A stretch of 62,925 nucleotides of DNA, filler included, from Coriobacteriales bacterium (GTDB lineage: Bacteria; Actinomycetota; Coriobacteriia; Coriobacteriales; UBA8131): NCBI GenBank assembly GCA_031263105.1. It is 5 parts of 5 records of this genome, joined end to end, with 100 filler letters (N's around TTAATTAATTAA, not from the genome) between each part and the next. Parts side by side here need not be neighbours in the genome. Positions count along the whole stretch, not along the records: positions 19,360 to 42,458 come from JAISGJ010000194.1; 4 more parts are not named here. One strand, given 5' to 3'. Below, one piece after another: positions 19,617 through 48,767 of this stretch. Each line of letters opens with the position of its first letter. The first letter of the stretch is position 1. A program made the position numbers and the translations under genes. The notes under the pieces were generated by a model. The model did no database searches. It worked only from the letters and a program-made list of their open reading frames with translations, and was not told the DNA's origin.

Positions 19617-19644
19617 AGGAAACGAACGAGAGAAGGAGGCAGGC

Positions 19645-22318: not shown

Positions 22319-22349
22319 GCCGGGCCCGAACCGAGCTGGGAGACGGCCC

Positions 22350-24059
22350 ATGCGGAACGGACATGCGCCCTGCCCTGACGCCGGGAAGACGCACGGATGC
22401 TCCGTGCCCCTCGATGTCGTGCTGGACCTCGAGGCATTGGAGCACCATCTTTGCCATCCCGCCAACCTCAAGCGCGGCTTCTGCTGGCCGGCACTGGCGG
22501 ATCCTACGCCGCCCGTCCCGGGCAGGCAGGGCGGGGGCCCGCTGCTGTACATAGTGGGGGCCGATGCCGCCAGGGGCTTCCTTGCGGGGCACGTCGAGGC
22601 CTTCTGCCTCGTCGTGCAGCCGGAGGGCGACCTTTCCGACTGGCTGGCGGAGTATGGCGACCGCGTGTGCGCCGTCTCCAGCACACTGGACGTCATGCAG
22701 ATATTTGCACAGGTCCAAGGCCTGTTCTCCCAGATAGCGCTGTGGCTGGGGGCCATGGAGCTTGCCATAGCGCGTCACGCCTCCCTGCAGCAGCTGCTCG
22801 ATGAGGGCGAGCAGGTGCTCCCTGGCTTCGTCTACATCTATGACGACAAGGGGAGCCTGCGTGCCTACACCAGGTCGATGGTGCCGCCGTCGCCGAGCTA
22901 CGTGGAGCTCGGGAAGACCGGCAACCTGAGGCCCGAACAGGTCCTGGGCCCTCACAGGAAGGACTTCGAGGCGCTTGCCTGCGAGGGCCCGACCGTCTGG
23001 CTCGAGAAGCCGACGGACGGGCAAACGGGAGAGCGAAGGCGCGAACGCCGCCTGTTCAGCTCGGTCGAGGTCGCCCATGCCGACATCTGCACCATCGTCA
23101 TGGTCGGCGGCCACACGCAGCCGACCAAGGGGCAGGTCACGTTGTTTGCGCTGTTCGTGACCTATGCACGAAGGCTCTGCCAGGCGCAGTGCCGCAGCGC
23201 TGCCGCCCTTGGCGCAGAGCCGCGACACGAGCTGTTCGACAAGCTCCTGAACGGAGAACAGCTGCACACCAGCTACATCGAGAGCCAGGCGAGGCGGTTG
23301 TCCGTTCCGACGGACGCCGAGCTCAAGCTGCTGCAGATAGGGCCGTTGCCGCCACAGGGACAGGCGCCCCTCCCCAGCGTCCTGCAGGAGGCAGGAAGGC
23401 TCAACGGCGGGGAATGCAGGGCCTTTTTCCATGAGGACAAGCTGTTGGTGCTCTGTCACTGCGAGAAGAGCGACAACCGCCTGTCCGTGCGCAGGATCGA
23501 CGCGGACCTGCGCACGCATCTTCACAGGCCGTTCGGGGCGGTCGCGTCGTCGTCCCAGGTGTTCTCCCACCTCAAGAACCTGGAATTCGCCTACCGGCAG
23601 ACGAACATAGCCTTCGACCTCAGAAAGGCCATCGATGCGGAGTTCCCCGGCAGCGGCCCGGACGGCTCCAGGGCGGTGTATGCCTTCGAGGACGCGTTCC
23701 TGTTCTATCTGATAACCCAAAAGGAGCCGGACGCGCGCTTCCTGGCCTTCTCGTTCTCGCATACGGTCCTGGAGAAGATCCATGCCGAGGACGTCGGGCA
23801 CGACACTGACGACGTGTGGCTGCTATGGCTCTACCTGCACTTCGAGCGCAGGGCCTCCGCCGTAGCCGAGGCCCTGCACATGCATCGCAACACCGTCATC
23901 TACCGCATCGAGCGCATCTGCAGGCGCTTCGACCTCGACTTCACGGACCAGGGCACACGCGACCGCCTGCTCCTGGACTACAAGGTCTACTTCCTCGCTG
24001 CGACCGACACGCACCAGCTCGCCCGCAAGATCCGCAAGAACGCCTCCCTCTCCTCCTGA
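22350..24059 (+). CDS. PucR/CdaR family transcriptional regulator
   Basis: C-terminal HTH AEALHMHRNTVIYRIERI; degenerate GGDEF-like middle region; start uncertain. Confidence 0.85.
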   Translation: MRNGHAPCPDAGKTHGCSVPLDVVLDLEALEHHLCHPANLKRGFCWPALADPTPPVPGRQGGGPLLYIVGADAARGFLAGHVEAFCLVVQPEGDLSDWLAEYGDRVCAVSSTLDVMQIFAQVQGLFSQIALWLGAMELAIARHASLQQLLDEGEQVLPGFVYIYDDKGSLRAYTRSMVPPSPSYVELGKTGNLRPEQVLGPHRKDFEALACEGPTVWLEKPTDGQTGERRRERRLFSSVEVAHADICTIVMVGGHTQPTKGQVTLFALFVTYARRLCQAQCRSAAALGAEPRHELFDKLLNGEQLHTSYIESQARRLSVPTDAELKLLQIGPLPPQGQAPLPSVLQEAGRLNGGECRAFFHEDKLLVLCHCEKSDNRLSVRRIDADLRTHLHRPFGAVASSSQVFSHLKNLEFAYRQTNIAFDLRKAIDAEFPGSGPDGSRAVYAFEDAFLFYLITQKEPDARFLAFSFSHTVLEKIHAEDVGHDTDDVWLLWLYLHFERRASAVAEALHMHRNTVIYRIERICRRFDLDFTDQGTRDRLLLDYKVYFLAATDTHQLARKIRKNASLSS

Positions 24060-24072
24060 CTCTGGTTCACGC

Positions 24073-24537
24073 CCCCACTGTCATTCCGAGCGGAGGCGGC
24101 GCCGCAGCCGAGGAATCCTTGGGTTCGAGCGCCCGGAAAACAGTCCGGTGGGTCCGAGCGCCCGGACGGGGTGCCGGTGGCACCCCGTCAGCGAAGAACG
24201 GGTGAAGCGCTTGCGCGAACCCACGGGTCTGTTTTCAGCGAGGACGGCGCGACAGTCCGGTGGACTGTCGCGGGGCGAAGCTGCGGAGCAGCGGGGGAGC
24301 CCATGGAACCGACAGGCCCACGGAACGCAAAGCGGCCAACCGCAGTCGGAAGGCGCTTCGATCCGCAGTCGGCTGCTTCGCAGCCGAAGATTCCTCGACG
24401 GGGCTCGGAATGACAGTGAGGGGTGAGCAGTAGACAGTGAGGGGTGAGCAGTAGACAGTGAGGGGTGAGCAGTAGACAGTGAGGGGTGAGCAGTAGACAG
24501 TGAGGGGTGAGCAGTAGACAGTGAGGGGTGAGCAGTA
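24073..24537. repeat. Long (~345 bp) palindromic element plus six 21-bp tandem copies of its end
   Basis: CCCCACTGTCATTCCGAGC...GCTCGGAATGACAGTG; GACAGTGAGGGGTGAGCAGTA x6 at 24412-24537. Confidence 0.9.
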
Positions 24538-24605
24538 ACCCCTGACAGGTCCGAGCAGAATCGTGCGCCGGTACCGACGGGCACACCGGCACCGGCGCAG
24601 GGCAC

Positions 24606-27215: not shown

Positions 27216-27258
27216 GGCTCTCCTCACTTCCTTTCCGGTAACGAACGTCGATTGCGGC

Positions 27259-28491
27259 TCACTTGATGCGGCACAGGATTGCGAAGCTGATGCCGAAGGC
27301 GCTGATGCCGAACACGACAGAGGCCATCATCGCCCATTGGTCGAGCGCGGGGCCGAGCACCAGGGCCGGCAGCATCGTGCCGAGGAACTGCCCTATGCTC
27401 TGGATGACGGTGAGCAGCCCCATGCCGACGGCAAGCATCGCGGGATCGCCGATCAGCCGCGGATACACGGCCACCGCCACGGTGGGGGCGCCCATGCCCA
27501 GCAGGCCCATCAGCGCCACGCCCAGCCAAAGCGTCGTCCCCGTGGAGGTGAACATGCAGAACACCGCCAAGGCCATGGCGATGAGACCGACAAGGTAGAG
27601 GAGCTTGTACCTTCCCGTGCGGTCGGCGATGATGCCGAAGGCCACCGATGTGACTATCGAGAGCAGCATGGGCAGCGTGGACACCAGGCCGGAGAGCGTA
27701 GGGCTGAAGTCGTTCTGTTGCAGATAGGTGGGCGAGAAGGTCAGGGTCGTGAGCAGCAGTATCTGGAACACGACAAAGGAGGCGAAGAACAGCAGCATGT
27801 TACGGGTGAGCAGCAGCCGGTAGGCGGCAGGGGGCGTGCGGGCTACAGGGGATGCACGGTCGGCAGGGGGCGTGCCGCCTCCCGGTGCGCGTCCCGGCAC
27901 CGTCGCACGGTCCGGCTCCCCGCGCCGGTCGTCGACGACGAGGAACAGCGCCATGCCTGCCGCCATCGTGAGCGCGGCATATCCCAGCCAGACGCCGAGC
28001 AGCCCACCGAGCTCGAAGACGGTGGGCGTGAGCACCCCTGCAAGGAAGGCCCCGAGCATCCCGCCCACTATCCAAAGCCCGGTCGCGACGCCGCGCCTGT
28101 CGGGGGCGATCTTATGCTGCACCACGACAGGGCCCGAGACTATGAGCAAGGTGAGCGCCATGCCCTCGAAGACACGGCAGGCGTACAGGACCGCCACGTT
28201 CTCCGACATGATGCCCAACGAGGCCGCCGCGACGATGCCGACAGACGCAAGCAATGCGTTCTTGGCACCGATGCGGTGCACGAGAAGCCCTGCCGGCAAC
28301 GCCAGGAAGATACCGACGAAGGTGAAGGCCGGCATCAGGAACGTGGTCTGCCGGACGTCCATGACGCCGCTGGCGACGATGCCGGGGATGATGGTCGGAA
28401 CCTTGTACTGCACCATGGTGACGGATACGGCAACCGCCATCACCGCCATGGAGACGACAAGGAAGTTCTGATACGTTCCGCGCTGCTCCAC
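27259..28491 (-). CDS. MFS transporter
   Basis: About 12 hydrophobic segments; GLLVHRIGAK and GIIADRTGRYK motif-A-like loops. Confidence 0.88.
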   Translation of the reverse strand: MEQRGTYQNFLVVSMAVMAVAVSVTMVQYKVPTIIPGIVASGVMDVRQTTFLMPAFTFVGIFLALPAGLLVHRIGAKNALLASVGIVAAASLGIMSENVAVLYACRVFEGMALTLLIVSGPVVVQHKIAPDRRGVATGLWIVGGMLGAFLAGVLTPTVFELGGLLGVWLGYAALTMAAGMALFLVVDDRRGEPDRATVPGRAPGGGTPPADRASPVARTPPAAYRLLLTRNMLLFFASFVVFQILLLTTLTFSPTYLQQNDFSPTLSGLVSTLPMLLSIVTSVAFGIIADRTGRYKLLYLVGLIAMALAVFCMFTSTGTTLWLGVALMGLLGMGAPTVAVAVYPRLIGDPAMLAVGMGLLTVIQSIGQFLGTMLPALVLGPALDQWAMMASVVFGISAFGISFAILCRIK

Positions 28492-28660
28492 TCGCCCCTC
28501 CTCATCTCACAGACACGCTCACAACGGAGACGATGACTGCTCATCGTCTCCCGAGGGCCTTTTCGACCGTACTCCAGTATGAACGGCCCTCGCTTCTACC
28601 GGAAGCCGCTGCATCGGTAGCTTCCTCCAAGGATTCTTCGTCTGGATGTATGTTGCTACA

Positions 28661-28810
28661 GTTCACACCCCACTGTCATTCCGAGCCCCGCCGAGGAATC
28701 TTTGGACACGCAGTGTCCAACGGCAGGTCAGGAGGTCCTTTGACCTGCGGTCGACCGCTTGCGCGGTCGAGGATCCCTCGGCAGGCTCGGGATGACAGTG
28801 GGGTGTGAAC
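28661..28810. repeat. Palindromic REP/MITE-like element
   Basis: GTTCACACCCCACTGTCATTCCGAGC...GCTCGGGATGACAGTGGGGTGTGAAC; interior nearly identical to 60835-60970. Confidence 0.9.
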
Positions 28811-28856
28811 GGTAACGTCTGTTTGCACAAGCTGGTACGGAATGTGCGATTTCCCC

Positions 28857-28885
28857 TTGACAGCTTCAGTTAGAGGAACTAAACT
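28857..28885 (+). promoter_or_regulatory. Sigma70 promoter of the iron operon overlapped by a DtxR-type palindrome
   Basis: TTGACA (28857-62), 17-bp spacer, TAAACT (28880-85); TTAG-N5-CTAA at 28870-28882. Confidence 0.65.
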
Positions 28886-28993
28886 TCACAGGAGTTAAAC
28901 AGTCCTTACAAATGGGCCGAGCGGGAGCAGGCCCGGTGGAACGGTCGGTCGGGACAAGAGAGCGCAGGACGGGGAACACCTTTGGCAACCACG

Positions 28994-30238
28994 ATGAGAC
29001 TCCATACCCTTGGGCGGGCCCTGCCCGGCATCTTGGCCGTCCTTCTGGCGCTCGTCTTCGCGTTTCCCCCCGTTGCCGCCCATGCCGCAGACAATGCGGA
29101 CTACGAGTCCTGGAACCAGATCGTCGACGAGATGGAGGACATCCTCGACGACTCCTATGCGATATACGGGGAAGGCGACGCGAAGGCCGCGAAGGCGCGC
29201 GTCGATGACGCGTACTACGGCTACTACGAGGCGCTCGGATTCGAGAAGACGGTCATGGCGCATATCTCGGGGGATCGGGCGGCCGAGGTCGAGTACAACT
29301 TCAGCTTCGCCAAGCGCGCCATGGAAGAAGGGCGCAGCGACGATGCCCGCGCATCGCTCGACACCCTCGTCCGCCTGCTCAGAGAGGACGCGAACACCCT
29401 CGACGGCTCCGCCGGAAACCCCTTTGTGGCCTTCCTGGGGTCGCTTGCCATCATCGTCCGCGAGGGCTTCGAGGCCATACTGGTGGTCGGTGCCATCATC
29501 GCCTATCTGGTGAAGAGCGGCAACAAGGCGCAGACGCGGCCGGTCTACATCGGCTCGGCCCTTGCGCTGGTCGCAAGCGTGGCCCTTGCCTTTCTCCTCA
29601 CGGCCCTCTCGGCCGCAAGCAGCGCGAACCAGGAGATCATCGAGGGCGCCACCATGCTGTTCGCGGTCGTCGTGCTGTTCTATGTGAGCAACTGGATGAT
29701 ATCGAAGGCTGATTCCTCGTCGTGGAAGTCCTATATCGAGGGGAAGGTGCAGGCCTCGGTCAGCCGGGGCAGCGTGTTCGCCTTGGCCTTCGCCGCCTTT
29801 CTGGCGGTCTTTCGCGAGGGTGCCGAGACCATCCTGTTCTACGGCGCCCTGTTCTCAGGTTCGGGCGAGGAGAGCGCAGGCATGATTTGGGTGGGCCTCG
29901 GAGTCGGCCTCGTCATGCTCGTCGTGCTGTTCGTGCTCATACGCTTCCTCTCCATCAGGCTGCCGCTCAAGCCTTTCTTCATGGCGACCAGCCTCCTGAT
30001 GTTCCTGCTCTGCATCGTTTTCGTCGGCTCAGGCGTCAAAGAGCTCCAGGAAGGCAACGTGATAGGGGTCACCTCCCTGCCCGGCCTTCCGTCAGTGGAC
30101 CTGCTGGGAATCTACCCCACGCTCGAGACCTTGGTCCCGCAGGTCGTCCTTTTGGTTATCTCGGTAGCGACCATCGTCTACCAGATACGTAAGTGGAAGA
30201 AGAACCGGACCATCAGAGAAGAAGGAGAAACACGATGA
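28994..30238 (+). CDS. FTR1 family iron permease (FetM-like)
   Basis: Two REGxE motifs (REGFE, REGAE); N-terminal extracellular domain; LGIYPTLET. Confidence 0.92.
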   Translation: MRLHTLGRALPGILAVLLALVFAFPPVAAHAADNADYESWNQIVDEMEDILDDSYAIYGEGDAKAAKARVDDAYYGYYEALGFEKTVMAHISGDRAAEVEYNFSFAKRAMEEGRSDDARASLDTLVRLLREDANTLDGSAGNPFVAFLGSLAIIVREGFEAILVVGAIIAYLVKSGNKAQTRPVYIGSALALVASVALAFLLTALSAASSANQEIIEGATMLFAVVVLFYVSNWMISKADSSSWKSYIEGKVQASVSRGSVFALAFAAFLAVFREGAETILFYGALFSGSGEESAGMIWVGLGVGLVMLVVLFVLIRFLSIRLPLKPFFMATSLLMFLLCIVFVGSGVKELQEGNVIGVTSLPGLPSVDLLGIYPTLETLVPQVVLLVISVATIVYQIRKWKKNRTIREEGETR

Positions 30239-30816
30239 AGCACAGAATTGTCTTGGCGTTCGTGGCCTGTCTTGCCGCCGCTTTTGCGCTGGTAGGATGT
30301 GCGCAGACCGGTGGCGAGGGGAGCGCAACGGGCCCGCAGGACGCGGGCGGCTTCGAAGAGTACCCGATAGGCGACGACCTCGTGCTGGGGCCGCTCAACG
30401 TCGCGGGCGTCTACTTCCAGCCCGTCGACATGGAGCCTGCGGGCAACTCGCTGCCCGCCGCTGAGAGCGACATGCACATCGAGGCTGACATATCGGCCGC
30501 CGAGGGCACCGAGCTCGGTTACGGCGTCGGCGACTTCGTGCCGAACCTCACGGTGAACTACGAGATCGAGGACGCGGACGGCAACGTGCAGGAAGGCGCC
30601 TTCATGCCCATGAGCGCCTCCGACGGCCCCCACTACGGCGCGAACGTGAAGATCGGGCCTGCGGGCACCTACAAGGTCCGCTTCATCATCGAGAGTCCCG
30701 AGGAGCAGGGCTACCTGCTGCACACGGATGCCGAGACGGGCGTCGAGGGCAAGTTCTGGACGACTCCCCTCGTCGCCGAGTGGGAGGAATTCGACTGGGT
30801 TCCCCGCGAGTGGTAG
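30235..30816 (+). CDS. P19/Tp34/FetP iron-copper binding lipoprotein
   Basis: Lipobox ALVGC; EYPIG, VYFQPVDMEP, HIEADI, FMPMSASDGPHYGAN, HTDAETGV. Confidence 0.92.
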   Translation: MKHRIVLAFVACLAAAFALVGCAQTGGEGSATGPQDAGGFEEYPIGDDLVLGPLNVAGVYFQPVDMEPAGNSLPAAESDMHIEADISAAEGTELGYGVGDFVPNLTVNYEIEDADGNVQEGAFMPMSASDGPHYGANVKIGPAGTYKVRFIIESPEEQGYLLHTDAETGVEGKFWTTPLVAEWEEFDWVPREW

Positions 30817-32148
30817 ATGCTTGAATACTTTATAGAGACCCAGCAGCACACGCTCTTCCTTGCACTCCTGCTGCCGCCCCTGGGGATTTCCGTCTCCCGG
30901 GTCGGCGGCAGGCCTGCGTTCAGGCGCTTCCTCGTCGGCTTGGCCGCAGGGGCCGGCGCGGCGGTCGCGCTGGCACTCCTCAAGACCTTCACCGGATGGA
31001 TTGTCACCGAATACTGGAGCATGGGCTTCATGGCCGGCGTCCTGCTCTTCGGGGCGCTCTTCCTCTTGGCCGACCTGCGCCTGGTCTTTAGGAGGAACGA
31101 GCGCAGGGCGCAGGGGCTGCTGCTGTGGTCGGCCCTGCTCCTTGCGGCCTTTCTTGCGGCCTATGTGCTGAGGGGCGACCTGGTCGCCATCCGAGAGTTC
31201 ATACAGGCGGACGAGAGCCTCTTCGACGTCGCCGTGGTCTACCGCGCCCTCGGTTGGCTGGGAGGCCTCCTCGTCGTCGCGCTGTGCGCCGCCGGGACGA
31301 CCGTGGCGGCAAGGGGCGTTACGGAGAATGCCCTGCGCCCTCTGCGGAGCGCCCTGCTCCTCGTCTACCTCGTGTACGGGATCCTCTCGACCGTGCAGAT
31401 CCTCTATGCGCACCACATGATCCCGCGCGCGTCATGGATCCGCGCCGTGCTGCAAGTCTCCATCAACCAAGGCGACGCCTTCCTGTACGCGAGCATGGCC
31501 CTGACCGTGGCGCTGGTCGTGTGCGCCCTCGTCGCCCAGCGGCGCTCCCTGGCAGCCGCAAGGCCGGGGCAGGCGACGGCTGCCCCGGAGGCGGCGCCCA
31601 CAGCGGACCCCCCGACCTCCTCCCCCTCCTCCCCCTCCCAGACGAACCCCGCCCTCTGGAGGAAGGCCCGGGCGGCATGGCGCAGGGTGCGCCGCTGGGG
31701 CACGGTCGTCGTCGCGGGCATGGCCGTCACCGTCCTCTCCCTGACCGTCGGCGTGGCCTACAACGAGCGGGGCATCGAGCTCAGCCCCGCCGAGCCCTTG
31801 GAGTACGTCGGCACAACGGTGCAGGTGCCGCTTGCGAGCATCGAGGACGGGCACTTGCACCGATTCGCGCACGTGACGGAGGCGGGGACCGAGGTGCGCT
31901 TCATCATCATCAAAAAGAACGCGACGGCCTACGGCGTGGGGCTCGACGCCTGCAACGTCTGCGGCCCCACGGGCTACTACGAGCGCGACGACCAGGTCGT
32001 CTGCAAGATGTGCGACGTCGTCATGAACAAGCAGACCATCGGCTTCCCGGGAGGGTGCAACCCCGTCCCCCTCGGGTTCGAGGTCAAAGAGGGCGTCCTC
32101 AGCATCGAGCTCTCACTGCTCGAACAGGAAGCCGGGCGTTTCGAGTAA
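30817..32148 (+). CDS. DUF2318 membrane protein with a Cys-rich C-terminal domain
   Basis: Multi-TM N-terminus; DGHLHRF, DACNVCG..GYY, VVCKMC, GGCNPVP. Confidence 0.88.
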   Translation: MLEYFIETQQHTLFLALLLPPLGISVSRVGGRPAFRRFLVGLAAGAGAAVALALLKTFTGWIVTEYWSMGFMAGVLLFGALFLLADLRLVFRRNERRAQGLLLWSALLLAAFLAAYVLRGDLVAIREFIQADESLFDVAVVYRALGWLGGLLVVALCAAGTTVAARGVTENALRPLRSALLLVYLVYGILSTVQILYAHHMIPRASWIRAVLQVSINQGDAFLYASMALTVALVVCALVAQRRSLAAARPGQATAAPEAAPTADPPTSSPSSPSQTNPALWRKARAAWRRVRRWGTVVVAGMAVTVLSLTVGVAYNERGIELSPAEPLEYVGTTVQVPLASIEDGHLHRFAHVTEAGTEVRFIIIKKNATAYGVGLDACNVCGPTGYYERDDQVVCKMCDVVMNKQTIGFPGGCNPVPLGFEVKEGVLSIELSLLEQEAGRFE

Positions 32149-34639: not shown

Positions 34640-35305
34640 ATGCCGCAGATGCTGCTGGAACTCAAGGGGATAACCAAGAGCTACGGCTCGCTCGACGCCC
34701 TCCACGACGTGAGCTTCGACGTCGAAAAAGGGGAATGGCTCGCCATCATGGGACCCTCCGGCAGCGGAAAGACCACCATGATGAACATCATCGGCTGCAT
34801 GGACAAGCCGAGCAAGGGGAGCGTGGTGCTCGACGGGCGGGACATCTCCCGGGAGAGCGCCCGGAGCCTGACCGATATCCGGCGGGACACGATAGGGCTG
34901 GTCTTCCAGCAGTTCCACCTCATCAGCTACCTGACCGCCGTCGAGAACGTCATGGTCGCGCAGTACTACCACAGCCTCCCCGACGAGGCGGAGGCGACCT
35001 TGGCGCTCGAGCGCGTCGGCCTCGCGAAGCGCGCACGGCACCTGCCGAGCCAGCTCTCGGGCGGCGAGCAGCAGCGGGTCTGCATCGCGCGGGCCCTCAT
35101 CAACCGGCCGCAGCTGATACTCGCCGACGAGCCGACGGGCAACCTCGACGAGGCCAACGAGGGCAAGGTGCTCGAACTGCTCCGCGAGCTGCACCAAGAG
35201 GGGCGCACCGTCATCGTCGTCACCCACGACCCCGAGGTCGCCGAGCAGGCGCGGCGCACCGTCGTGCTCGAACACGGCCGCGTCCATACGATCCGCGAGA
35301 ATTGA
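34640..35305 (+). CDS. ABC transporter ATP-binding protein
   Basis: [31 protein letters not shown]. Confidence 0.95.
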
Positions 35306-35306
35306 G

Positions 35307-35696
35307 ATGGGGATGAAGGCGGGCGGGCGGGGGACGGCGCGGGCGCGGGCGTTGGCCCTTGCCGCCCTGCTCGCCCTGCTGGCGCTGCTGGGAGCCTGCG
35401 GCTCACAGGCGACGGGGCAGCCCCTGAGTGCGATACACGCGAACGCGGACTCCTGGAGCGCGGACGCCGTCGCCGATGCCGACTGCCTGGGCTGCCACAA
35501 CGGGGCTGCGCTCACACGGGCCACGCAAGGCTACGACGGCGCAGACGACGTGAACGTCCACGAGCCGCCCGCAACCGGCCACTCCCCCACCGCCTGCGCA
35601 TCCTGCCACCGCGTGGAGGCCGCCCCCGTCCTCGCCTGCAACCAGGGCGGCTGCCACGCCTACACCCTCCCCGAAGGCTGGTCCGCGCAGGGCTGA
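35307..35696 (+). CDS. Small triheme c-type cytochrome lipoprotein
   Basis: Lipobox LLGAC; heme motifs CLGCH, CASCH and CNQGGCH (CX4CH); extra His residues as possible distal ligands. Confidence 0.75.
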
Positions 35697-35702
35697 CGAG
35701 AC

Positions 35703-36122
35703 TCAGGGCCGCCCCGTGGCGCCTCCGTATCTCCTCCAGAACTCCGCAGGGGTGAGAATCGGATAACGGTCGGCAAGAGCCAACAGGTCTTTGTCGCCTG
35801 TCACTAAAGCCTCTGCCCCCGACTCGGCCAGCAGCGCCAGGACGGGATCGTCCTTGCTGTCGCGAACAGATGCCACGACCTCACTCGGCACAACGATGTC
35901 CGCGCTGAACAGAAAGGTGTCGACAAGTCGGTCTATCTCGGCAGCGCTGAGCGTGTTTCTCGAAAGCCGGGGCAGCACCCTCCTGAACTCATCGAGCAGA
36001 TAGGGGGAGAGCGTCACTTCCAGCGAGCCGTTCCGCCACATCGAGACGATTGCGCCGGGGAGGCCGTGCGGATACGCAATGCCGGACACGAGCACATTGG
36101 TGTCCAGCACGACACGCGTCAA
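35703..36122 (-). CDS. PIN-domain toxin
   Basis: RVVLDTNVLVS, RDSKDD, LVTGDKDLL. Confidence 0.9.
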   Translation of the reverse strand: MTRVVLDTNVLVSGIAYPHGLPGAIVSMWRNGSLEVTLSPYLLDEFRRVLPRLSRNTLSAAEIDRLVDTFLFSADIVVPSEVVASVRDSKDDPVLALLAESGAEALVTGDKDLLALADRYPILTPAEFWRRYGGATGRP

Positions 36123-36409
36123 TGCCGTGCCTCGGATCGCACCGATGCGGAGACGGCCTCGATTTCAGCCATGCCCTCATCTTCAGGAACGGAGGCATAC
36201 GCATCGGCCACCTTGTCGGTCAGCCTGTCAAAGATGTCCCACATCCTCCGGATGCGCTCGTAAAGGGCAGAGTCGATCAAGGCCGCAGCTGGCTTGCCCC
36301 CTTTGTTGATGATGACGGCATCGTTGCTGTACTGAACCCTGGCTATCATCTCCCCGAGGTTCTGACGAAACTTCACCGCTGTGACTTCCTGGACCATCTT
36401 TTGCTCCAA
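36119..36409 (-). CDS. Phd/YefM family antitoxin
   Basis: VTAVKFRQNLGEMI..V...VIINKGGKPAAALI; overlaps the toxin start; start may be 36397. Confidence 0.88.
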   Translation of the reverse strand: MEQKMVQEVTAVKFRQNLGEMIARVQYSNDAVIINKGGKPAAALIDSALYERIRRMWDIFDRLTDKVADAYASVPEDEGMAEIEAVSASVRSEARH

Positions 36410-36575
36410 TCATATCAATCAATATGTTCCATACAATCAGTATATCGACTGTGCCTATCGGGGTCAAAGGCGACAGCGAGGTGGATTGCTCGAGATCGCC
36501 AGCAGAGTGCCGACGGTTTGAGCTGCAACCCAGCCAGTTGTGAGTCCAGCCAGTTGGACTGCTGAGGTAGCCATC

Positions 36576-36780
36576 GCCTTCATTGTGATAGAATTCGAGT
36601 TGCCAAATCTACATGCGGATTCCCTCCGTGGGTTTCAGTATATCCAGCTTGAAGGGCATCGGCCCGACAAGGACATGTTGAATCCCCTGTAGGTTTGGCG
36701 ACTGTGGGCAGATGCCCTTCATCCTGATGAAGGCAGCTCGGTCGCCGAATTACCGGCTAGCTGCGAGGCTCTTTCCACGG
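36576..36780 (+). ncRNA. Candidate structured non-coding or cis-regulatory RNA
   Basis: 16-bp stem 36598-36613/36688-36703 with two G-U pairs, continued by GGATTC/GAATCC; 11-bp pairing 36650-36660/36711-36721; extended -10 TGATAGAAT at 36586-36594. Confidence 0.4.
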
Positions 36781-36973
36781 TTATTCAGACGTGACGTCAC
36801 GATGAATGAGTGGAACGGGGTCAGAAATGAATAATTGCAGCATGCGGCGAACGCTAGTGGTTCAAGGGGAAAGAATCCCAATTTGTGATTATTTGCACAA
36901 CAACTTAAATCAACCTCTTGAGGAATCGGTTTGCGGACACGAAGAGTCAGATAACTGTGAGTTCAACGTAACA

Positions 36974-37174
36974 ATGGCGAAGGGTTCTTGGATGTTGTAC
37001 CTGATCCTGCCACTCTTGTTGCCAGTTGTCGGATCCATTATCGGGCTATACTTTGCGCATAAAAACAGCCAGCGTAACACAAGGGCTGCACAAGCAGTAA
37101 AAAACAGATGGCTTATCGCATCCATTATCGGCTTCATCATATGGATAGTTGTCCTCATTAGTAACTTATCGTAG
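36974..37174 (+). CDS. Small two-TM membrane protein
   Basis: Two hydrophobic stretches separated by a basic loop; start uncertain (ORF is open from 36806). Confidence 0.5.
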   Translation: MAKGSWMLYLILPLLLPVVGSIIGLYFAHKNSQRNTRAAQAVKNRWLIASIIGFIIWIVVLISNLS

Positions 37175-37338
37175 CCATCACAACGTCCGCACAAGCAACA
37201 GCAAAAGCTACGGAGTATTCAAGAGCTAAAGAGCAGAAGCGTTACGACGCTTTCAATGGCGTCATTGTTCCAGAAAAAGGAACAAAAGGAGGCCTCGGGC
37301 AACTCAGGGGCTGAATCAGAGAATGGGGATTGTTGCAC

Positions 37339-38556
37339 ATGAGCGGACCAAAGGGAGCAAACTACAGAGTCATCTCAGCTGCTGAGCAGGAGCGCAGGCG
37401 CAACGAGGAGCTCTGCGCACAGTGCCGCGCCCTCTTGGCAAAAGTCGTTGAGGAGTACGAGAGTGCGCAGAACACGGATGGGGAAGCAATCGCACGACAA
37501 CTGGAGCCGTCCAAGAAAACCGCCCAGACACTGGCGAAGTGGCAACAGGAGCTAGAGTATATGCACCAGACAGCGAAGGCTGCCGCCGCCGCCAAGCAGC
37601 AGGAACGCAGACAGAAGCTATTGGAGAAAGCGTTTGCAGACAACGCCAGGCACGTCGTCAGACTTGGAGTAACGGAATCGAAGAGGCCAAAGGCTGCAAG
37701 CAGTACCAAGCCTGCTAACAAGAATGCAGTTAGACAAAGCACAGACGCAGAAGCGCTGAAGCAAATCCACGCGAGCATAGAGAAGGCACTGTCTCTGGCT
37801 GCGGACATCGAAGCAGACAGTGTGTGCGCCCAGTTAGGGGCAGAGAGCGCCCGCATCTACCAAATCGAGGACGCCTCTATCGCCAGGGCGAGCCTGTCCG
37901 TATTTGAGTCACAAGTGGAGAAGGCTCTGCGTCAACAGCGACAGCAACGCCATCTCGCCGAGCAGAAAAGCGAAATAGCCCTCTCGCTTTCTCATCTGAA
38001 CAACGATACGGCCAAAGAGATAATCTCTGGCCTGGGCACTGCCTCCGATGCTACAGCGGTTGCCGCACTGGCTGTACGGGCTTCAGGCTTACTGGAGACG
38101 GACAGTCGTGAGCAGGATGCCGCATACGTTGCCAAACAAATAGCCGAGGTGCTAAGCGAGATGGATGGCTACTCAGCCTACGGCGAAGCAGCTACCGACG
38201 ACAGCAATACGATTGTTGTTCAGCGCGCGGATTTGACCGACTGCGTACTGCGCATACGCATCGATTCTGAGCGTAGCGCAGTATTTACGAATGTTGAATA
38301 CACTGCTACAAGTGGCCGCATCAAAGCCAAAGACAGAGAAGCGGCCATTTGCCCAGACATCACAGAACTTCAAGAGCGAATGACTAAAAACGGCATAGAG
38401 ACCGAGTGGATTTTTCGTCAAGAGCCTGGTGCGGTGCCGATGAAGGAGCTTGTCGCCGCCAAAACAGCAGACAAAGCACAAACACGGGCAACAAAGCGAA
38501 AGAAGAAGGGAAAGCTTGAACAATTGGAATTAGGAAGGGGTTTGAAAAATGGCTAA
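37339..38556 (+). CDS. Hypothetical coiled-coil protein (MSGPK N-terminus), first gene of the AAA/radical SAM/kinase operon
   Basis: Ala/Gln/Glu/Lys-rich helical protein with a small alpha/beta C-terminal region; overlaps the next gene by 8 nt. Confidence 0.8.
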   Translation: MSGPKGANYRVISAAEQERRRNEELCAQCRALLAKVVEEYESAQNTDGEAIARQLEPSKKTAQTLAKWQQELEYMHQTAKAAAAAKQQERRQKLLEKAFADNARHVVRLGVTESKRPKAASSTKPANKNAVRQSTDAEALKQIHASIEKALSLAADIEADSVCAQLGAESARIYQIEDASIARASLSVFESQVEKALRQQRQQRHLAEQKSEIALSLSHLNNDTAKEIISGLGTASDATAVAALAVRASGLLETDSREQDAAYVAKQIAEVLSEMDGYSAYGEAATDDSNTIVVQRADLTDCVLRIRIDSERSAVFTNVEYTATSGRIKAKDREAAICPDITELQERMTKNGIETEWIFRQEPGAVPMKELVAAKTADKAQTRATKRKKKGKLEQLELGRGLKNG

Positions 38557-40474
38557 GAACCAAAATAATATTGCTGCTGAAGTTGATGAGGTGGACGACA
38601 AACTGCCACTGTGGTTACAAAATATCCACACCGCGCTTCCGCACATCTCTCAGTTTATCCTGCATGGTTCTATCCGTGATGTAATCCCGCAATACGACGA
38701 AAATGGGAAATACACGGGTTTCATTGATGTAAAGACAGCGATTGCCGACCTCTTGACAGCAAACGGATTCGATGCCGTGCTGGAATACTGCGTCCCCGAC
38801 ATGCTGGTAATCCGCAGTTTGTCGGATGAACGCTATTCACTAGAGGAAATAGACGACTACCTGTGCAAGACTTGTTCGTTGCCAAAGTCTGAAAAGATCG
38901 GAGTAATAACCACTGAGTGGTTTGAGTCACTCGACAAAGTCACCGCCGAAATTGGCAGCATGATGCGCGAAAGGGATTTGCCGCGCCTGAGCCTGGTCGT
39001 TGACTACGCGTCACAGGCACATGAGGTCTCAGAAATGCATCCCGCAATCGACAGATTGATGATCGCCTGTTTGAAGCATGTGCACGAGTCAGGAGAGCTT
39101 CTGCATGACGGCTATCGGAAAGTCTCGTTGCGCCACCCTGTCTTTTGGCTCGTGGACAAGCCCAATGATCTACCGGGGTGGATGCTTACAGGTGACGGCA
39201 TTCGTCAGGTACCTATACTCTACCCCGATTTAGATGAACGCACGAGAATCGCGCGTGCCGCATTGCAGGCTTCCCTTGGTGTCGAAGCTGTTGATGAGGA
39301 GACTGTAAGACGCTTTGCTGGGGTCTCGGAAGGACTGAGCATCAGAAGCATTTTGGGAATAAACAAACTTGTGATAGCCGGTGATGTCAGTTCTGAGCGG
39401 GTAGTTGAGTCGGCACGGCAATTCCGGCTGGGCATCACCGAGAACCCTTGGCAGAAACCGGAGCTTCGGGAGCGGATCAAGAATGGCAGAGAAGTGTTGG
39501 CAAGCCGGGTCTATGGACAGGAAAGAGCGATAGAGAAAAGCCTCGATATCCTCATCCGCTCGGCATTGAACATGACCCATGCCCATTCTAAAGACGGGGG
39601 CACCGGTCCGCGTGGTGTGCTGTTCTTCGCCGGAGCAACCGGCGTGGGCAAAACGGAGCTGGCAAAACAACTTGCCGAATTGATCTTCGGTACCACAGAG
39701 CGGATTATCCGCTTCGATATGAGCGAGTTCGCTCAGGAACACACTGAAGCGCGTCTGCTCGGAGCTCCTCCAAGTTACATCGGCCACGGTGCTGGCGGTG
39801 AGTTGACCAACGCCATTCGTAGACAACCGCATTCTGTCGTCCTGTTTGACGAGATCGAGAAGGCTCATCCGGCGATCTTGGATAAGTTCCTGCAGGTTCT
39901 TTCTGACGGGCGCCTTACAGATGGCAGTGGCGACACGGTGTTCTTCACGGAGTCAATCATAATATTTACCTCGAACAAGGGTGCCGAGAACGCTCAGTAT
40001 ATTATCGAGGACATCTCAACGCAGAAACCAGACGGAGAGGCGCTTTCTCAGAAGCTTAATGAGTATGAGAGAGTGATTCGTGAGTCAGTTGTGGATTACT
40101 TCACCGGCACAGGGGAAAGTCAGCTGGGGCGTCCTGAGTTGCTTGGACGGATTGGTGAGAGCAACATCATCGTGTTCAACCCTATAGCCACAGAGATTGC
40201 AGAGGCAATTGCCGGTAATGGCATTAACAATGTCGTCATTAACATTCTGAAGCAGCTTAAATGCCAAATCACATTCAGCGATGAGGCGCTGAAGCAGAGC
40301 ATGGGCTTCGCAACGTCCGATCTGTCCAAGGGCGGACGAGGTATTCAGAATGCCCTCAAAGACGTGCTCGTCCGCCCGTTGGCACATATCCTGTTCGTGA
40401 ATGAAGGAATTGAGGAGTTGCACATACGCTCCGTTGCGCGCATCGATGCCGACACCTTCGAGCTGGAAGTTTGA
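38549..40474 (+). CDS. AAA+ ATPase with a ClpA/ClpB D2-type module and a divergent N-terminal region
   Basis: RVYGQERA, Walker A GATGVGKTELAK, RFDMSEF, LLGAPPSYIG, Walker B VVLFDEIEKAH, DGRLTD, RPELLGRI; no D1 Walker A or Clp-N domain seen. Confidence 0.9.
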   Translation: MAKNQNNIAAEVDEVDDKLPLWLQNIHTALPHISQFILHGSIRDVIPQYDENGKYTGFIDVKTAIADLLTANGFDAVLEYCVPDMLVIRSLSDERYSLEEIDDYLCKTCSLPKSEKIGVITTEWFESLDKVTAEIGSMMRERDLPRLSLVVDYASQAHEVSEMHPAIDRLMIACLKHVHESGELLHDGYRKVSLRHPVFWLVDKPNDLPGWMLTGDGIRQVPILYPDLDERTRIARAALQASLGVEAVDEETVRRFAGVSEGLSIRSILGINKLVIAGDVSSERVVESARQFRLGITENPWQKPELRERIKNGREVLASRVYGQERAIEKSLDILIRSALNMTHAHSKDGGTGPRGVLFFAGATGVGKTELAKQLAELIFGTTERIIRFDMSEFAQEHTEARLLGAPPSYIGHGAGGELTNAIRRQPHSVVLFDEIEKAHPAILDKFLQVLSDGRLTDGSGDTVFFTESIIIFTSNKGAENAQYIIEDISTQKPDGEALSQKLNEYERVIRESVVDYFTGTGESQLGRPELLGRIGESNIIVFNPIATEIAEAIAGNGINNVVINILKQLKCQITFSDEALKQSMGFATSDLSKGGRGIQNALKDVLVRPLAHILFVNEGIEELHIRSVARIDADTFELEV

Positions 40475-40477
40475 CCG

Positions 40478-41158
40478 ATGCAAATCGAGGTCGCGCGCGT
40501 TCTGTCGCCAGTTGAGAGTTTGGGCCCCGGCAAGCGTCTGGCACTCTGGCTGCAGGGCTGTGCCATTGCCCAAGCGGGTTCGCCTTGTGGCGGCTGTATA
40601 TCGCGTGACCTTTGGGTCTCCGGCCACGGTCGTTGCCTTGATACTTATGATTTTGGCAGAGAGGTCACAGAAAGAGTGCACAGCGAAGAATTGTCTGGCT
40701 TAACGGTGACCGGCGGTGAACCTTTGGATCAATACGATGCCTTGTTGGCACTGGTCGGTGCTGTAAAAAGCGAGCTGCTGTCCGATCATGATTCTTATGG
40801 TCAAAGCAATACATTCGACCTCTTACTCTTTACGCACTACACGCAGTCAGAGATTGCTACAGGCTTTCCCGACATTATGGAGGCATTCGATGCCATGGTT
40901 TGTGGGGAGTACCGAGCCGACTTGCCCTCGGAGACCCCTTTGATTGGTAGCACCAACCAGGAGTTGATCGTCAAGCCGATAGTTGCCAACAAATATAGCA
41001 CGCTCAGCCAACAACCCCGCTTGCAGGCATTCGTCGTGGAGGGGGACGTCCTCTTCACAGGCATCCCTTTGACCGGCGAGGTCGAGGCAATAGCGCATCG
41101 CCTTGAGTCAAGAGGCGTAACATTCGAATCAGTCTCATGGAAGGGAGCCCAGCCGTGA
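40478..41158 (+). CDS. NrdG-like radical SAM / 4Fe-4S single-cluster protein
   Basis: LGPGKR..LWLQGC..CGGC, GLTVTGGEPLDQ, D.MVCG.Y, GSTNQ. Confidence 0.85.
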   Translation: MQIEVARVLSPVESLGPGKRLALWLQGCAIAQAGSPCGGCISRDLWVSGHGRCLDTYDFGREVTERVHSEELSGLTVTGGEPLDQYDALLALVGAVKSELLSDHDSYGQSNTFDLLLFTHYTQSEIATGFPDIMEAFDAMVCGEYRADLPSETPLIGSTNQELIVKPIVANKYSTLSQQPRLQAFVVEGDVLFTGIPLTGEVEAIAHRLESRGVTFESVSWKGAQP

Positions 41159-42458
41159 AGGAGTGCCCTGCTTGCGGCCGCGAGGTCACTGACGGGACGG
41201 CGCTCTGCCCGGGGTGCGGGGCGTCGCTGCGGAAGGACTCAGGACCCGGCGCGTCGCGCAGGCGCGACGGGGAGGACCTGGCGCCCTGCCCCGTCTGCGG
41301 CGACCTGGGCGTCCCCGGTGCGGCCTGCAGAGTTTGTCCCCAAGGCGAATACGGAGCCCCTGTTCAACCGGTGACACCTCCGAATGACAACAACGCCTTC
41401 GTACCCAGGCGCCTGGCAGACGACTATGAGTTCGTACGCTATCTTGGCGAAGGCGCCCAGGCCCGCGTAAGCCTGCTGCGCAACAGAAGAAACGGCAATC
41501 AGGTGGTCTTGAAAAGATACCACCGCCTAGAGGCCATACTGGATACTGCTGCTGTGGCCAAGCTGCGGGGAGACGGACTGTCTGGCGACGAATCCAAGGA
41601 ACTGGGCAGGCACGTGCTGCGGATACTGGGCTACAGCGACTCTTACGGCGACAACTGGGAGTTGCAGGAATACTGCGAACAGGGCACCTTGCACGACGTT
41701 TTGGCAGCAGCACCGAACAGGCGTCTAGCCCCTGAAAGTTTGAAAGGCGTCATCAGGGAACTGAGCCAAGCTATCGCCTTCATCCATTCTCTTGATGTCA
41801 TCCACAGGGACTTGAAGCCCTCAAACGTTCTCGTACGCACGGCTGCCCCGTTGGATCTTGTGTTCGCAGACTTCGGAACTGCCAAAGAGCAGCAACTGTC
41901 GCATGACCGGGTCTCTAACGTAGAGGGTACTTATGCCTATCTGCCACCCGAGGCATATCTCGGGGAAACAGGAAGGACGCTTGACTGGTGGGCGCTTGGC
42001 ATGATTGTCTTTGAGGCCTGTACAGGACACCATATCCTCAGCAGAGACGATGACAAGTTTCCAAGTGATGCGGAGATAATGTATACCGTCAGCAAAGGTG
42101 CTTACAGGGTGCGGCTAGATGAGATCGATGACGAACGCACTCATAATCTTGTCGAAGGCCTATTGCTCATGAATAGCGAAAACCGCTGGGGTAGCGCACA
42201 GGTCTCGGATTGGCTTGACGGCTACAACCCTCCAATCGTTCGCGATGCGACACCTGAGCCAAAAGACTTCACAACTAACTGGGCATTTTACGTAGAGGGG
42301 ATTGCAGATCAAGTCGCCACGCCAGATGACCTGAACTTACTGCTCAAAGGGCACTGGGAGCATGCCGACGCCCTGTTCGTGCAGATGCCCGACGAGTTCG
42401 CGGCATGGCTGGAGAGCGACGGGGCCTACGCCGAGATCGCCAAGGCCGCCCGGAGCCG
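41155..42458 (+). CDS. Hanks-type Ser/Thr protein kinase with N-terminal double zinc ribbon (truncated at contig end)
   Basis: CPAC, CPGC, CPVC, CRVC; LGEGAQA, VLK, HRDLKPSN, DFG, GTYAYLPPE, DWWALG; GTGA overlap with the upstream stop. Confidence 0.9.
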
Positions 42459-42558
42459 NNNNNNNNNNNNNNNNNNNNNNNNNNNNNNNNNNNNNNNNNN
42501 NNTTAATTAATTAANNNNNNNNNNNNNNNNNNNNNNNNNNNNNNNNNNNNNNNNNNNN
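42459..42558. other. Artificial contig-joining linker
   Basis: N44-TTAATTAATTAA-N44. Confidence 0.97.
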
Positions 42559-45824: not shown

Positions 45825-45883
45825 GGGACATGCCCCCTCAAAGGTCAGAGCCGTACCTTCGGCTCACGGCCCCATTGTGCCAT

Positions 45884-45929
45884 GCCGTTCCTTAACCGGT
45901 CTTGAGCCGTTCCTTAACCAATCCTTAAA
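45884..45929 (-). promoter_or_regulatory. Direct-repeat site, probable OmpR-family regulator binding region
   Basis: CTTAA/CTTGA at 45891, 45901, 45913 and 45924 (10-12 bp period) upstream of the ABC exporter. Confidence 0.45.
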
Positions 45930-45973
45930 TCTGACCCCCCACCCCCCCCCCCCCCCCCCCCTGCCACCTCGGG

Positions 45974-46555
45974 CCCCACTGCCGTCGCCCGAGCCCCACT
46001 GCCGTCGCCCGAGCCCCCACTGCCGTCGCCCGAGCCCCACTGTCATCCCAAGCCCCACTGCCATCCCGGGCCCCCACTGCCATCCCGAGCCCCACTGTCA
46101 TCCCGAGCCCCACTGTCATCCCGGGCCCCACTGCCATCCCGGGCCCCACTGCCATCCCGGGCCCCACTGTCATCCCGAGCCTGCCGAGGGATCCTCGGCT
46201 GCGAAGCAGCCGACCGCAGGTCGAAGGATTCTCCGGCTGCGATCGGTCGCTTCGCGTTCCGTGGGCCTGTCGGTTCCATGGGCCCACCCGCTCAGGGGCT
46301 CATACGCTTAAGGGCTCATACGCTTAGGGGCTCACCCGCTGCTTCGCAGCTTCGCCCGGAAACAGCCCACTGGGCTGTTTCCCAGTCCGCTGGACTGTCG
46401 CGCCGTCCGCGCTGAAAACGCGGTGCGTTTTCCGGGCGCTCGGACCCAAGGATCCCTCGGCAGGCTCGGGATGACAGTGGGGGCTCGGGATGACAGTGGG
46501 GGCTCGGGATGACAGTGGGGGCTCGGGATGACAGTGGGGGCTCGGGATGACAGTG
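45974..46555. repeat. Long palindromic element (46162-46482) flanked on both sides by tandem arrays of its 18-20-bp end
   Basis: 33-bp perfect TIR CCCCACTGTCATCCCGAGCCTGCCGAGGGATCC; about 10 left and 4 right terminal units; internal 16-bp duplication GGGCTCATACGCTTA. Confidence 0.9.
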
Positions 46556-46669
46556 AGATGTCCGTGGAGGGTGTGACCAGTAACTGTTCTCGTCCACAAC
46601 AAAAGAGGCACTGAGTCGGCGCCTTCCTCAATGACCTGCCATACTTAACCTAGCCTGCGGAGCGTCCCC

Positions 46670-48667: not shown

Positions 48668-48767
48668 NNNNNNNNNNNNNNNNNNNNNNNNNNNNNNNNN
48701 NNNNNNNNNNNTTAATTAATTAANNNNNNNNNNNNNNNNNNNNNNNNNNNNNNNNNNNNNNNNNNNN
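48668..48767. other. Artificial contig-joining linker
   Basis: N44-TTAATTAATTAA-N44. Confidence 0.97.

Follow-up and report, generated by a model that had tools for sequence, protein, structure and literature searches.

A conserved Actinomycetota gene cassette that groups an orphan NrdG-like radical-SAM enzyme and a new protein family with an Hsp100-type ATPase and a phospho-signalling gene set

Introduction

In type VI secretion, a threonine-phosphorylation pathway composed of the PpkA kinase, the PppA phosphatase and Fha1 controls a ClpV-dependent machine. Dodola (DolA/DolB) and the PADLOC candidate PDC-M37 (A/B) are two-gene defence or candidate systems in which the B component is an ATPase resembling the second nucleotide-binding domain (NBD2) of ClpB and its partner is uncharacterised; to our knowledge, Dodola carries no radical-SAM (S-adenosylmethionine), kinase, PP2C or FHA genes. 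Gao and colleagues are said to have placed, in 2020, the TerY-P triad of TerY (a vWA protein), PP2C and a kinase among the kinase/phosphatase defence modules. We know activase-type radical-SAM enzymes only as partners of glycyl-radical enzymes. Here we describe a gene cassette found in a 62,925-nucleotide stretch of DNA from a Coriobacteriales bacterium (assembly GCA_031263105.1; the whole stretch is referred to as the window). Its four readable genes, g1 to g4, encode a protein of a new family with an MSGPKG N-terminus, an Hsp100-type AAA+ ATPase, an NrdG-like radical-SAM enzyme and a zinc-ribbon Ser/Thr kinase.

Two further described groups of systems share parts with this locus. The KKP module of Pf prophages is reported to combine a Ser/Thr kinase with a PP2C-type phosphatase in a conflict locus (PMC11341870). 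The available text of Kaur et al. 2020 (PMC7159879) describes actinobacterial systems in which a zinc-ribbon kinase, PP2C and vWA proteins surround GAP1-N2 GTPases; it also describes FtsH ternary systems with a radical-SAM effector proposed to modify the product of a neighbouring gene. An earlier note on the window, made from the sequence, had read the four genes as a horizontally acquired operon serving conflict, defence or signalling, and had called it functionally uncharacterised. That last description has held: when the four cassette proteins and a nearby 122-amino-acid (aa) product, five window proteins altogether, were scanned with PADLOC v2, no cassette protein matched any model beyond generic matches to the kinase and the ATPase core. 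No published description of the cassette was found in the full-text literature, a search that left bioRxiv supplements and subscription journals outside its range.

Results

g1 to g4 are the front part of a conserved cassette

All four genes lie on the plus strand. g1 (37339-38556) encodes a 405-aa protein with long helices and a C-terminal alpha/beta domain. g2 (38549-40474) encodes a 641-aa ATPase matching AAA_2, with an active-looking NBD2 and a degenerate N-domain that is predicted to resemble the first nucleotide-binding domain (NBD1). g3 (40478-41158) encodes a 226-aa NrdG/PflA-like protein (Fer4_12, 5.1e-18; NrdG, 5.8e-14), and g4 (41155-42458) a Ser/Thr kinase headed by a double zinc ribbon (Pkinase, 4.9e-34). 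For g1 we take ATG 37339 as the start, and not the TTG at 37330 given by the open reading frame (ORF) tool, because the MSGPKG start is conserved. The GTG at 41155, taken as the start of g4, has GGAAGGGAG just upstream; the alternative ATG at 41137 has no such site. g1 and g2 overlap by 8 nt, g2 and g3 are separated by 3 nt, and, with GTG 41155 as the start of g4, g3 and g4 share the overlap GTGA, so that translational coupling is implied throughout. These tight junctions, the zinc ribbon on the kinase and the truncation of the operon had all been claimed in the earlier note and were borne out. The window is built from five contigs joined by N spacers at 19260-19359, 42459-42558, 48668-48767 and 56449-56548 (runs of N around TTAATTAATTAA), across which no feature can be read. 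The cassette genes stand at the end of a 23,099-bp contig (19360-42458), and g4 is cut where the N run begins at 42459. The remaining four contigs were found to contain no PP2C, FHA or kinase C-terminus.

Eleven related loci with enough flanking sequence (L001, L002, L010, L013 and L021-L027) were compared. L013 came from a 401-genome sample of the phylum of L001 and L021-L027 from a 401-genome sample of its order; a search with a 14-sequence alignment gave five metagenome loci, of which one (L010) had useful flank. At every one of the 11 loci g1 is followed directly by a g2-type ATPase. The g3-type gene comes next in 10 of the 11, and L021 has a more divergent copy on the opposite strand, at a distance of about 5 kb. 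A large kinase (769-1331 aa) and a PP2C phosphatase are present in 11/11. FHA is encoded by a gene of its own in 10/11, and the product often bears a zinc ribbon at its N-terminus. L001 is the locus without a separate FHA gene; there the zinc ribbon is on the kinase, as in the window. The order of the last three cassette genes varies, and the kinase is upstream in L010. g1 to g4 are therefore the front part of a conserved Actinomycetota cassette of five to six genes, consisting of g1, a AAA+ ATPase with one active ring, an orphan NrdG-like enzyme, a zinc ribbon on an FHA protein or on the kinase, PP2C and the large kinase. Chance adjacency of the four genes was rejected on this co-occurrence in 11/11 loci. 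The neighbourhood comparison proposed in the earlier note thus supports its view of the genes as one unit and corrects the size of that unit, which also takes in PP2C and usually an FHA gene. Since PP2C is always, and the FHA gene usually, present in the related loci, the window holds roughly the first two thirds of the cassette.

The cassette is rare and patchy in its spread. The g1 profile matched 8 genomes in the order sample and 4 in the phylum sample at E ≤ 1e-3, 2 of the latter being strong and full-length. In the order sample the seven best g3-profile hits (E ≤ 2.2e-74) all came from genomes with g1, at a distance of 1-3 kb from that gene; the eighth such genome has the displaced g3 copy, at 8.7e-42 and 7 kb away.

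g3 belongs to a large NrdG-like radical-SAM subfamily

The cluster cysteines of g3 (C28, C37 and C40) are spaced CX8CX2C, and a GGEP motif is present. The three cysteines and GGEP are invariant in 47/47 aligned relatives, all of which also keep a C-terminal extension, some 60 aa long and specific to the family. The common spacing in the subfamily is CX3CX2C (114 of 120 relatives); CX8CX2C occurs in 6/120, which make up the clade of the window g3, and stems from a five-residue insertion. The subfamily is large, with 984 matches at E ≤ 1e-3 among 8,000 candidates scored, and by source name includes cultured strains of Xylanimonas protaetiae, Kribbella, Microbacterium, Agromyces and Nocardioides. 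A phmmer search of g3 against PDB sequences gave no match at E ≤ 0.01.

Every curated family model placed g3 under its cut-off: 52.3 bits against 126.1 for NrdG, 32.8 against 231.75 for PFLA, and 21.4 against 250.2 for YjjW. PflA is the second-nearest family model (4.4e-8). Source annotations name relatives of g3 'anaerobic ribonucleoside-triphosphate reductase activating protein', and the host contig encodes molybdopterin oxidoreductases of the anaerobe type; both would suit an ordinary anaerobic activase of the NrdG/PflA kind, with its glycyl-radical partner encoded at another place in the genome and its own position in the operon incidental. We regard this explanation as very improbable. 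The NrdG score is far under the cut-off, the C-terminal extension is universal among the aligned relatives, and the gene follows the cassette ATPase in nearly all loci and tracks g1 genome by genome. On the score, the extension and the linkage to g1, an ordinary NrdG identity of g3 was rejected. As the earlier note had remarked for the sequence in view, the enzyme has no evident glycyl-radical partner: none was found among the 10 scanned genes of the window contig or in the cassettes of the 11 related loci.

g1 founds a new protein family

g1 had no match in Pfam, NCBIfam or PADLOC, and its L002 orthologue had none in PADLOC either. A profile search of 1.84 billion representatives gave 476 family members at E ≤ 1e-3; of these, 222 passed E ≤ 1e-10 and 46 passed E ≤ 1e-30. 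Their length is mostly 370-410 aa. A word-indexed search gave 4 relatives only. Members with a source name are all called 'hypothetical protein' and belong to Actinomycetota, the sources being Bifidobacteriaceae and Collinsella metagenome-assembled genomes (MAGs), Tessaracoccus and Actinomycetota MAGs. The N-terminus reads MSGPK in 104 of 162 family proteins and MSGPKG in 90 of them. In an alignment of 60 sequences, S2, C338 and G364 are present in 60/60 and G277 in 59/60, and residue 278 is Tyr or Phe in 60/60; M1, G3, P4, K5, G6, R20, L272, G277, E334 and G352 are conserved to 90% or more. The g1 orthologue of L001 (L001:10001-11167) has an in-frame TAG at codon 26, which makes it either a pseudogene or the product of an assembly error.

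The AlphaFold2 (AF2) model of g1 (predicted local distance difference test score, pLDDT, 87.9; predicted template modelling score, pTM, 0.80) has a strand near the N-terminus (residues 5-11) that completes an alpha/beta domain at the C-terminus (278-359). It also shows five long helices; the earlier note had called g1 a coiled-coil protein. Foldseek gave no match to this model in PDB or BFVD at E ≤ 1e-3. When the globular part, that is, the N-terminal strand with the C-terminal domain, was compared by an exhaustive aligner, domains of the KA1/AMPK-CTD/COR type scored Z 8-10. These were the Chk1 KA1 domain (5wi2_B; Z 9.9, root-mean-square deviation (rmsd) 2.3 over 89 aa, a Z of a size that can also reflect a common arrangement), SAD-B (Z 9.5), the C-terminal domain of AMPK alpha (Z 9.5) and the Roco COR domain (Z 10.0). 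We treat the KA1/COR likeness of the modelled domain as a fold-level lead only. A cluster of the type that makes ribosomally synthesised and post-translationally modified peptides was considered and rejected, g1 being a folded protein of about 400 aa in which the leader/core layout is absent.

The g1-like protein and the radical-SAM enzyme stay paired in three architectures

A sister cassette, in L028-L031, accounts for another four relatives of g3 (E about 1e-52). A divergent g1 homologue comes first in it, followed by an ATPase with a g2-type N-domain, the radical-SAM gene, a gene that joins a zinc ribbon to FHA, and one for a kinase-like protein; no PP2C was found there by tblastn. The divergent homologue starts MSSQRVVSFEL and aligns to the g1 profile with an hhalign probability of 82% (E 1.1e-5). 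A third layout, in L032 (9735-18717, minus strand), has an AAA-AAA-trypsin gene, an Hsp70-like gene, and genes for a 339-aa and a 497-aa protein, the last of these being directly upstream of the radical-SAM gene. Here the partner genes are the Hsp70-like and AAA-trypsin genes in place of a ClpB-like ATPase. The 497-aa protein starts MSGPK and has ELGF and TAC...RGI where g1 has ELGY and TC...GV; its hhalign match to g1 is local only (E 0.005). An NRPS-like (non-ribosomal peptide synthetase) gene was seen near this five-gene layout.

A g1-like protein and the g3 subfamily are thus paired in the main cassette, the sister cassette and L032. That the pair persists while the ATPase partner changes is the main reason for which g1 is proposed as the substrate of the g3 enzyme. 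One may suppose instead that, within a conflict system, the target of the radical-SAM enzyme is a small molecule or a nucleic acid, for example a nucleotide, as in viperin or QueE chemistry, or SAM itself, and that g1 and the ATPase serve only as sensor or scaffold. Fer4_12-type enzymes do include small-molecule enzymes. The RVxG[YF] fingerprint is absent from g1, the sister cassette keeps the enzyme without the MSGPKG motif, and in L021 the enzyme is not adjacent, all of which would fit such a role. Against it, the best g3 matches are the models of the protein-directed activases NrdG and PflA, with no QueE model listed, g1-like proteins stay with the enzyme in all three architectures, and the Gly-Tyr/Phe and Cys positions of g1 are invariant. 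On balance we consider a small-molecule or nucleic-acid target unlikely.

A more specific proposal makes g1 itself the radical-bearing protein. A glycyl radical at Gly277-Tyr/Phe, or a radical or modification at Cys338, would be installed by the orphan NrdG-like enzyme on the KA1-like domain, gated by kinase, PP2C and FHA and serviced by the Hsp100 ATPase, and g1 so modified would be a toxic or signalling immune output. Such a radical or modification would lie outside the classical ten-stranded glycyl-radical barrel. We hold this version to be quite improbable.

g2 is predicted to combine one active and one degenerate ring

The AAA_2 match of g2 (9.6e-43) covers residues 355-508. The protein resembles ClpB, ClpC and ClpA sequences over NBD2 only; of the 853 positions of the ClpB model only 554-841 are matched, and the score of 216.6 bits stays far under the cut-off of 1232.1. 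In the alignment with ClpB1 (9ip0_A, 1.3e-48) the pore loop GAPPSYIGH falls on GAPPGYVGH. Walker A (362-369), the pore loop (405-412), Walker B (D434/E435), sensor-1 (N476) and sensor-2 (R597, within GGRG) could all be located, and G362-T369, G405-G412, D434/E435, N476 and R597 are invariant in 29 aligned ATPases. From these motifs, NBD2 appears active.

The N-terminal part of the protein is more than an appendage to NBD2. Conservation within the ATPase family extends over the first 300 residues, and in the AF2 model (pLDDT 87.3) the N-domain forms an alpha/beta core with a helical lid. Isolated ClpB NBD2 (4fcv_A) aligns to model residues 303-641 with Z 29.8 and rmsd 2.8 over 304 aa; two-ring ClpC1/ClpB/ClpA chains cover 480-517 residues of the model between 17 and 641 (8ycx_A, Z 30.0; 6oax_E, Z 29.9). 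Because the two-ring chains align over about 500 residues and NBD2 alone over about 300, residues 17-300 are called a degenerate NBD1-like AAA+ domain. Within them the Walker A motif is absent, and profile comparison of the N-domain with NBD2 of the same protein by hhalign found no similarity (probability 0.1%). The modelled architecture is therefore one active plus one degenerate ring and not a bare D2: of the single-ring D2 ATPase described in the earlier note, the active NBD2 and its GAPPSYIG pore loop stand, and the NBD1-like domain has to be added. The ESM Atlas tags the N-domain PF29202 (Pfam 38.1), a family that turned up in none of the literature searched; the Atlas shows it ahead of AAA_2 ATPase regions in clusters drawn from several phyla. 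Neither a ClpP loop nor a proteasome-docking tail was seen in g2, features for which no dedicated test was made. g2 thus does not have the full make-up of a ClpB/Hsp104 disaggregase, which comprises two active nucleotide-binding domains, an N-domain and a coiled-coil middle domain.

g4 has the motifs of a Hanks-type kinase

The Pkinase match of g4 scores 118.4 bits against a cut-off of 31.7. Its translation contains LGEGAQARV (GxGxxxxV), VVLK (VLK), IHRDLKPSN (HRD) and ADFG (DFG), and g4 is apparently an active Hanks-type kinase. Zinc-ribbon models remained under cut-off (DZR, 25.0 against 27.3), and two CxxC...CxxC pairs are plain in the sequence. Relatives of g4 are 769-1331 aa long and often have a multi-pass membrane region at the end. 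The kinases at L001:13813-16815, L002:14287-16938 and L013:4638-6947 end in 4-8 hydrophobic segments, which suggests that these cassette kinases bear a polytopic membrane domain; the L010 kinase (1331 aa) has no hydrophobic segments.

The cassette lies in a low-GC island

The window cassette occupies a low-GC island (36300-42458) whose right-hand boundary is lost at the contig end. In 1-kb windows the GC content of the island is 0.50-0.54 against 0.65-0.70 elsewhere. In 300-nt windows it is 0.45-0.58 over most of 36300-42299, the exceptions being 0.68 and 0.59 at 41100-41699, and 0.70-0.73 to the left of the island, at 34800-35699. A PIN toxin gene (35703-36122, minus strand; PIN_3, 1.2e-18) and a Phd/YefM antitoxin gene (36119-36409, minus strand; 2.3e-7) overlap by 4 nt at the left edge of the island and have an intermediate GC of 0.62. 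The earlier note was right about both the AT-richness of the cassette relative to its host and the toxin-antitoxin neighbour. Its proposal of horizontal acquisition also fits, because the low-GC island goes together with the patchy spread. The AT-richest part of the island (GC 0.45) contains a 122-aa ORF with a hydrophobic C-terminal half (36806-37174, plus strand), which has no PADLOC or NCBIfam match; its sole match is a borderline one to PEN-2 (25.4 bits against a cut-off of 25). No tRNA was found on the cassette contig in a search for tRNAs and attachment sites, and a promoter and terminator scan gave nothing decisive.

The host flank (19435-32148) contains two molybdopterin-oxidoreductase genes, a PucR-type regulator and an iron-uptake set of the FTR1/FtrD type; on account of these genes it suggests an anaerobic, respiratory actinobacterium. 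An ABC transporter is also encoded on the remainder of the cassette contig. On another contig of the window, at about 45860-46630, overlapping ORFs on both strands encode repeated peptides of the HCHPEP and GPGMTVG types, a sign that the DNA downstream of an ABC-transporter pair contains a short tandem repeat.

Discussion

A phospho-regulated conflict system as the most likely reading

We consider the cassette most likely to be a phospho-regulated conflict system, anti-phage or acting by abortive infection, in which a kinase/FHA/PP2C switch would gate the modification and remodelling of g1. We give this reading a probability of roughly 45%. The conflict role is proposed because of the low-GC island with its PIN/Phd pair, the patchy distribution, and the CRISPR and TIR neighbours at two loci. 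Directly upstream of the L001 cassette (L001:954-9744) lie type III CRISPR-Cas genes (Csm3/Cas7-like, 2.9e-47; Cas10, 3.6e-13; Cas5-like) and two ORFs that together make up a TIR-SAVED effector (4.1e-46 and 6.6e-37). The L002 cassette has TIR proteins on both sides, together with an IetA-like ATPase.

The proposed mechanism of switch and core is built from the conserved gene linkage, the intact catalytic motifs and the fold predictions; the direction of each interaction, the radical-SAM target and the defence role are what we infer from them. A trigger would be sensed by the variable C-terminal part of the kinase. The FHA module would recognise the resulting threonine phosphorylation and PP2C would remove it, and the core would thereby be switched on. 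The radical-SAM enzyme would modify g1 by abstraction of a hydrogen atom, the best candidate sites being Gly277-Tyr/Phe278 or Cys338. The AAA+ unfoldase, translationally coupled to g1, would engage it for assembly, activation or recycling, perhaps through the invariant N-terminal peptide of g1.

Several observations weigh against a conflict role or against parts of this mechanism. Since L022-L026 have common flanking genes and are counted as one lineage, the cassette is known from about eight independent contexts, the window included, and defence genes are neighbours in only 2 of them. When 41 flank proteins were compared with PADLOC, matches occurred only in L001 and L002, with one weak match in L013. 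The flanks of L021, and likewise those of L013, are housekeeping genes. In L024 and L025 the cassette stands between arc/mpa (proteasomal ATPase) and dop (Pup ligase), and in L022 it directly follows arc, with dop beyond the stretch examined; in L027 it has M50 and trmI genes as neighbours and arc at a distance of about 4 kb. A tblastn search of g1 against plasmid and phage collections gave no match, and no viral contig was found among the metagenome loci matching g1, so that these searches lend no support to carriage by mobile elements. No recognisable effector domain (nuclease, TIR or pore-former) is present in the cassette. As to the proposed modification, g1 lacks the classical glycyl-radical fingerprint RVxG[YF], and a scan for such fingerprints in 8 loci and the window island gave scattered matches only, none of them conserved in cassettes. 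The linker of g1 is not clearly enriched in threonine (0.076 against 0.058), and no phospho-site is therefore evident. The sister cassette retains the radical-SAM gene although its g1 homologue lacks the MSGPKG N-terminus; this peptide thus cannot be a universal target. The conflict or defence role put forward in the earlier note accordingly agrees with the L001 and L002 contexts, the toxin-antitoxin pair and the island; the housekeeping or Pup-proteasome surroundings of other loci suit a cellular role just as well.

Those surroundings make a cellular proteostasis or stress-signalling module the main rival. Here a membrane kinase/PP2C/FHA switch would control an Hsp100-like remodeller with g1 as its adaptor or substrate, possibly in connection with the Pup-proteasome. 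Pfam assigns the adjoining arc/mpa genes in L022, L024 and L025 and the dop genes on the opposite side in L024 and L025. L023 and L026 match these three loci by the sizes of their flanking genes, and g1 starts about 110 bp from arc in L022 and L026. The position of L027, the housekeeping flanks of L021 and L013, the fold-level resemblance of the modelled g1 globular domain to kinase-associated KA1 domains (Z 8-10) and the want of a classical effector domain point the same way. On the other side stand the very patchy spread (8/401 genomes in the order sample and 2 strong in the 401 of the phylum sample), the low-GC island in the window, and the CRISPR/TIR neighbours at two loci. Moreover, the five arc-dop loci share flanks and amount to one lineage, and since all arc-linked loci come from one order, the linkage may go back to a single inherited insertion site; it could be either a functional link or an insertion hotspot inherited within that order. 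Nor do the ATPase C-termini have a conserved proteasome-docking tail, as read from the alignment and without a dedicated test. Taken together, a proteostasis role is rather unlikely, though a serious competitor, and we keep the phospho-regulated conflict system as the preferred interpretation.

Whichever role applies, a large radical-SAM subfamily of the activase type has as its partners here not a glycyl-radical enzyme but a new protein family, together with an unfoldase of the Hsp100 kind and a phospho-switch like those of eukaryotes. An immune function would extend the known effector repertoire by protein-directed radical chemistry, and control of a machine of the ClpB family by kinase, FHA and PP2C would then have a second bacterial example besides type VI secretion. 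A tie to the Pup-proteasome locus would instead suggest that proteostasis in actinobacteria has a branch not known so far.

Comparison with known systems

The cassette is conserved and uncharacterised and matches no known system; its likenesses are to single components or to a general plan. g3 shares with NrdG and PflA the small Fer4_12-type fold, the N-terminal three-cysteine motif followed by S/N-x-D/x-T-W, and the GGEP motif for SAM. It differs from them in falling under every curated cut-off, in its C-terminal extension, and in the CX8CX2C spacing of the window clade. No cassette has a glycyl-radical enzyme or a conserved RVxG[YF] fingerprint, and g3 is linked instead to the genes for g1, the AAA+ ATPase and the kinase. 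g2 has in common with ClpB, ClpC and ClpA an NBD2 with the pore loop, Walker A and B, the sensors and the D2-small domain, as well as an N-domain that is predicted to be NBD1-like, and it differs from them in having no ClpN domain, no middle domain and no Walker A in NBD1.

The ATPase also brings the locus close to Dodola and PDC-M37. g2 matches PDC-M37B at 2.1e-26 (residues 358-484) and DolB at 7.9e-19, both within the ATPase core (307-484). Membership in Dodola was rejected, as g1 and its L002 orthologue have no PADLOC match and the DolA partner is absent; membership in PDC-M37 was rejected, as none of the five window proteins scanned matches PDC-M37A. With TerY-P the cassette shares a Hanks-type Ser/Thr kinase and a PP2C-type phosphatase in a putative conflict locus. 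TerY-P membership was rejected because Pfam found no vWA/TerY protein among the cassette genes of L001, L002, L010 and L013, and the cassette differs from both TerY-P and KKP in its core of g1, AAA+ ATPase and radical-SAM enzyme. The systems of Kaur et al. centre on GTPases or on vWA-MoxR/FtsH, and the combination of ClpB-like ATPase, NrdG-like enzyme and MSGPKG protein is not described in the available text of that paper.

The closest parallel in overall plan is the phospho-control of type VI secretion. In both, a membrane kinase, PP2C and an FHA reader stand beside a ClpB-family ATPase that remodels, or in the cassette would remodel, a helical structural protein, and g2 matches the TssH/ClpV model at 5.2e-60, below its cut-off. 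The cassette differs in that the other type VI secretion genes are absent, the hosts are Actinomycetota and a radical-SAM enzyme is present. The likeness is therefore best regarded as an analogy of design, and not as homology of the systems, between two arrangements in which a kinase/FHA/PP2C switch would govern a ClpB-family machine.

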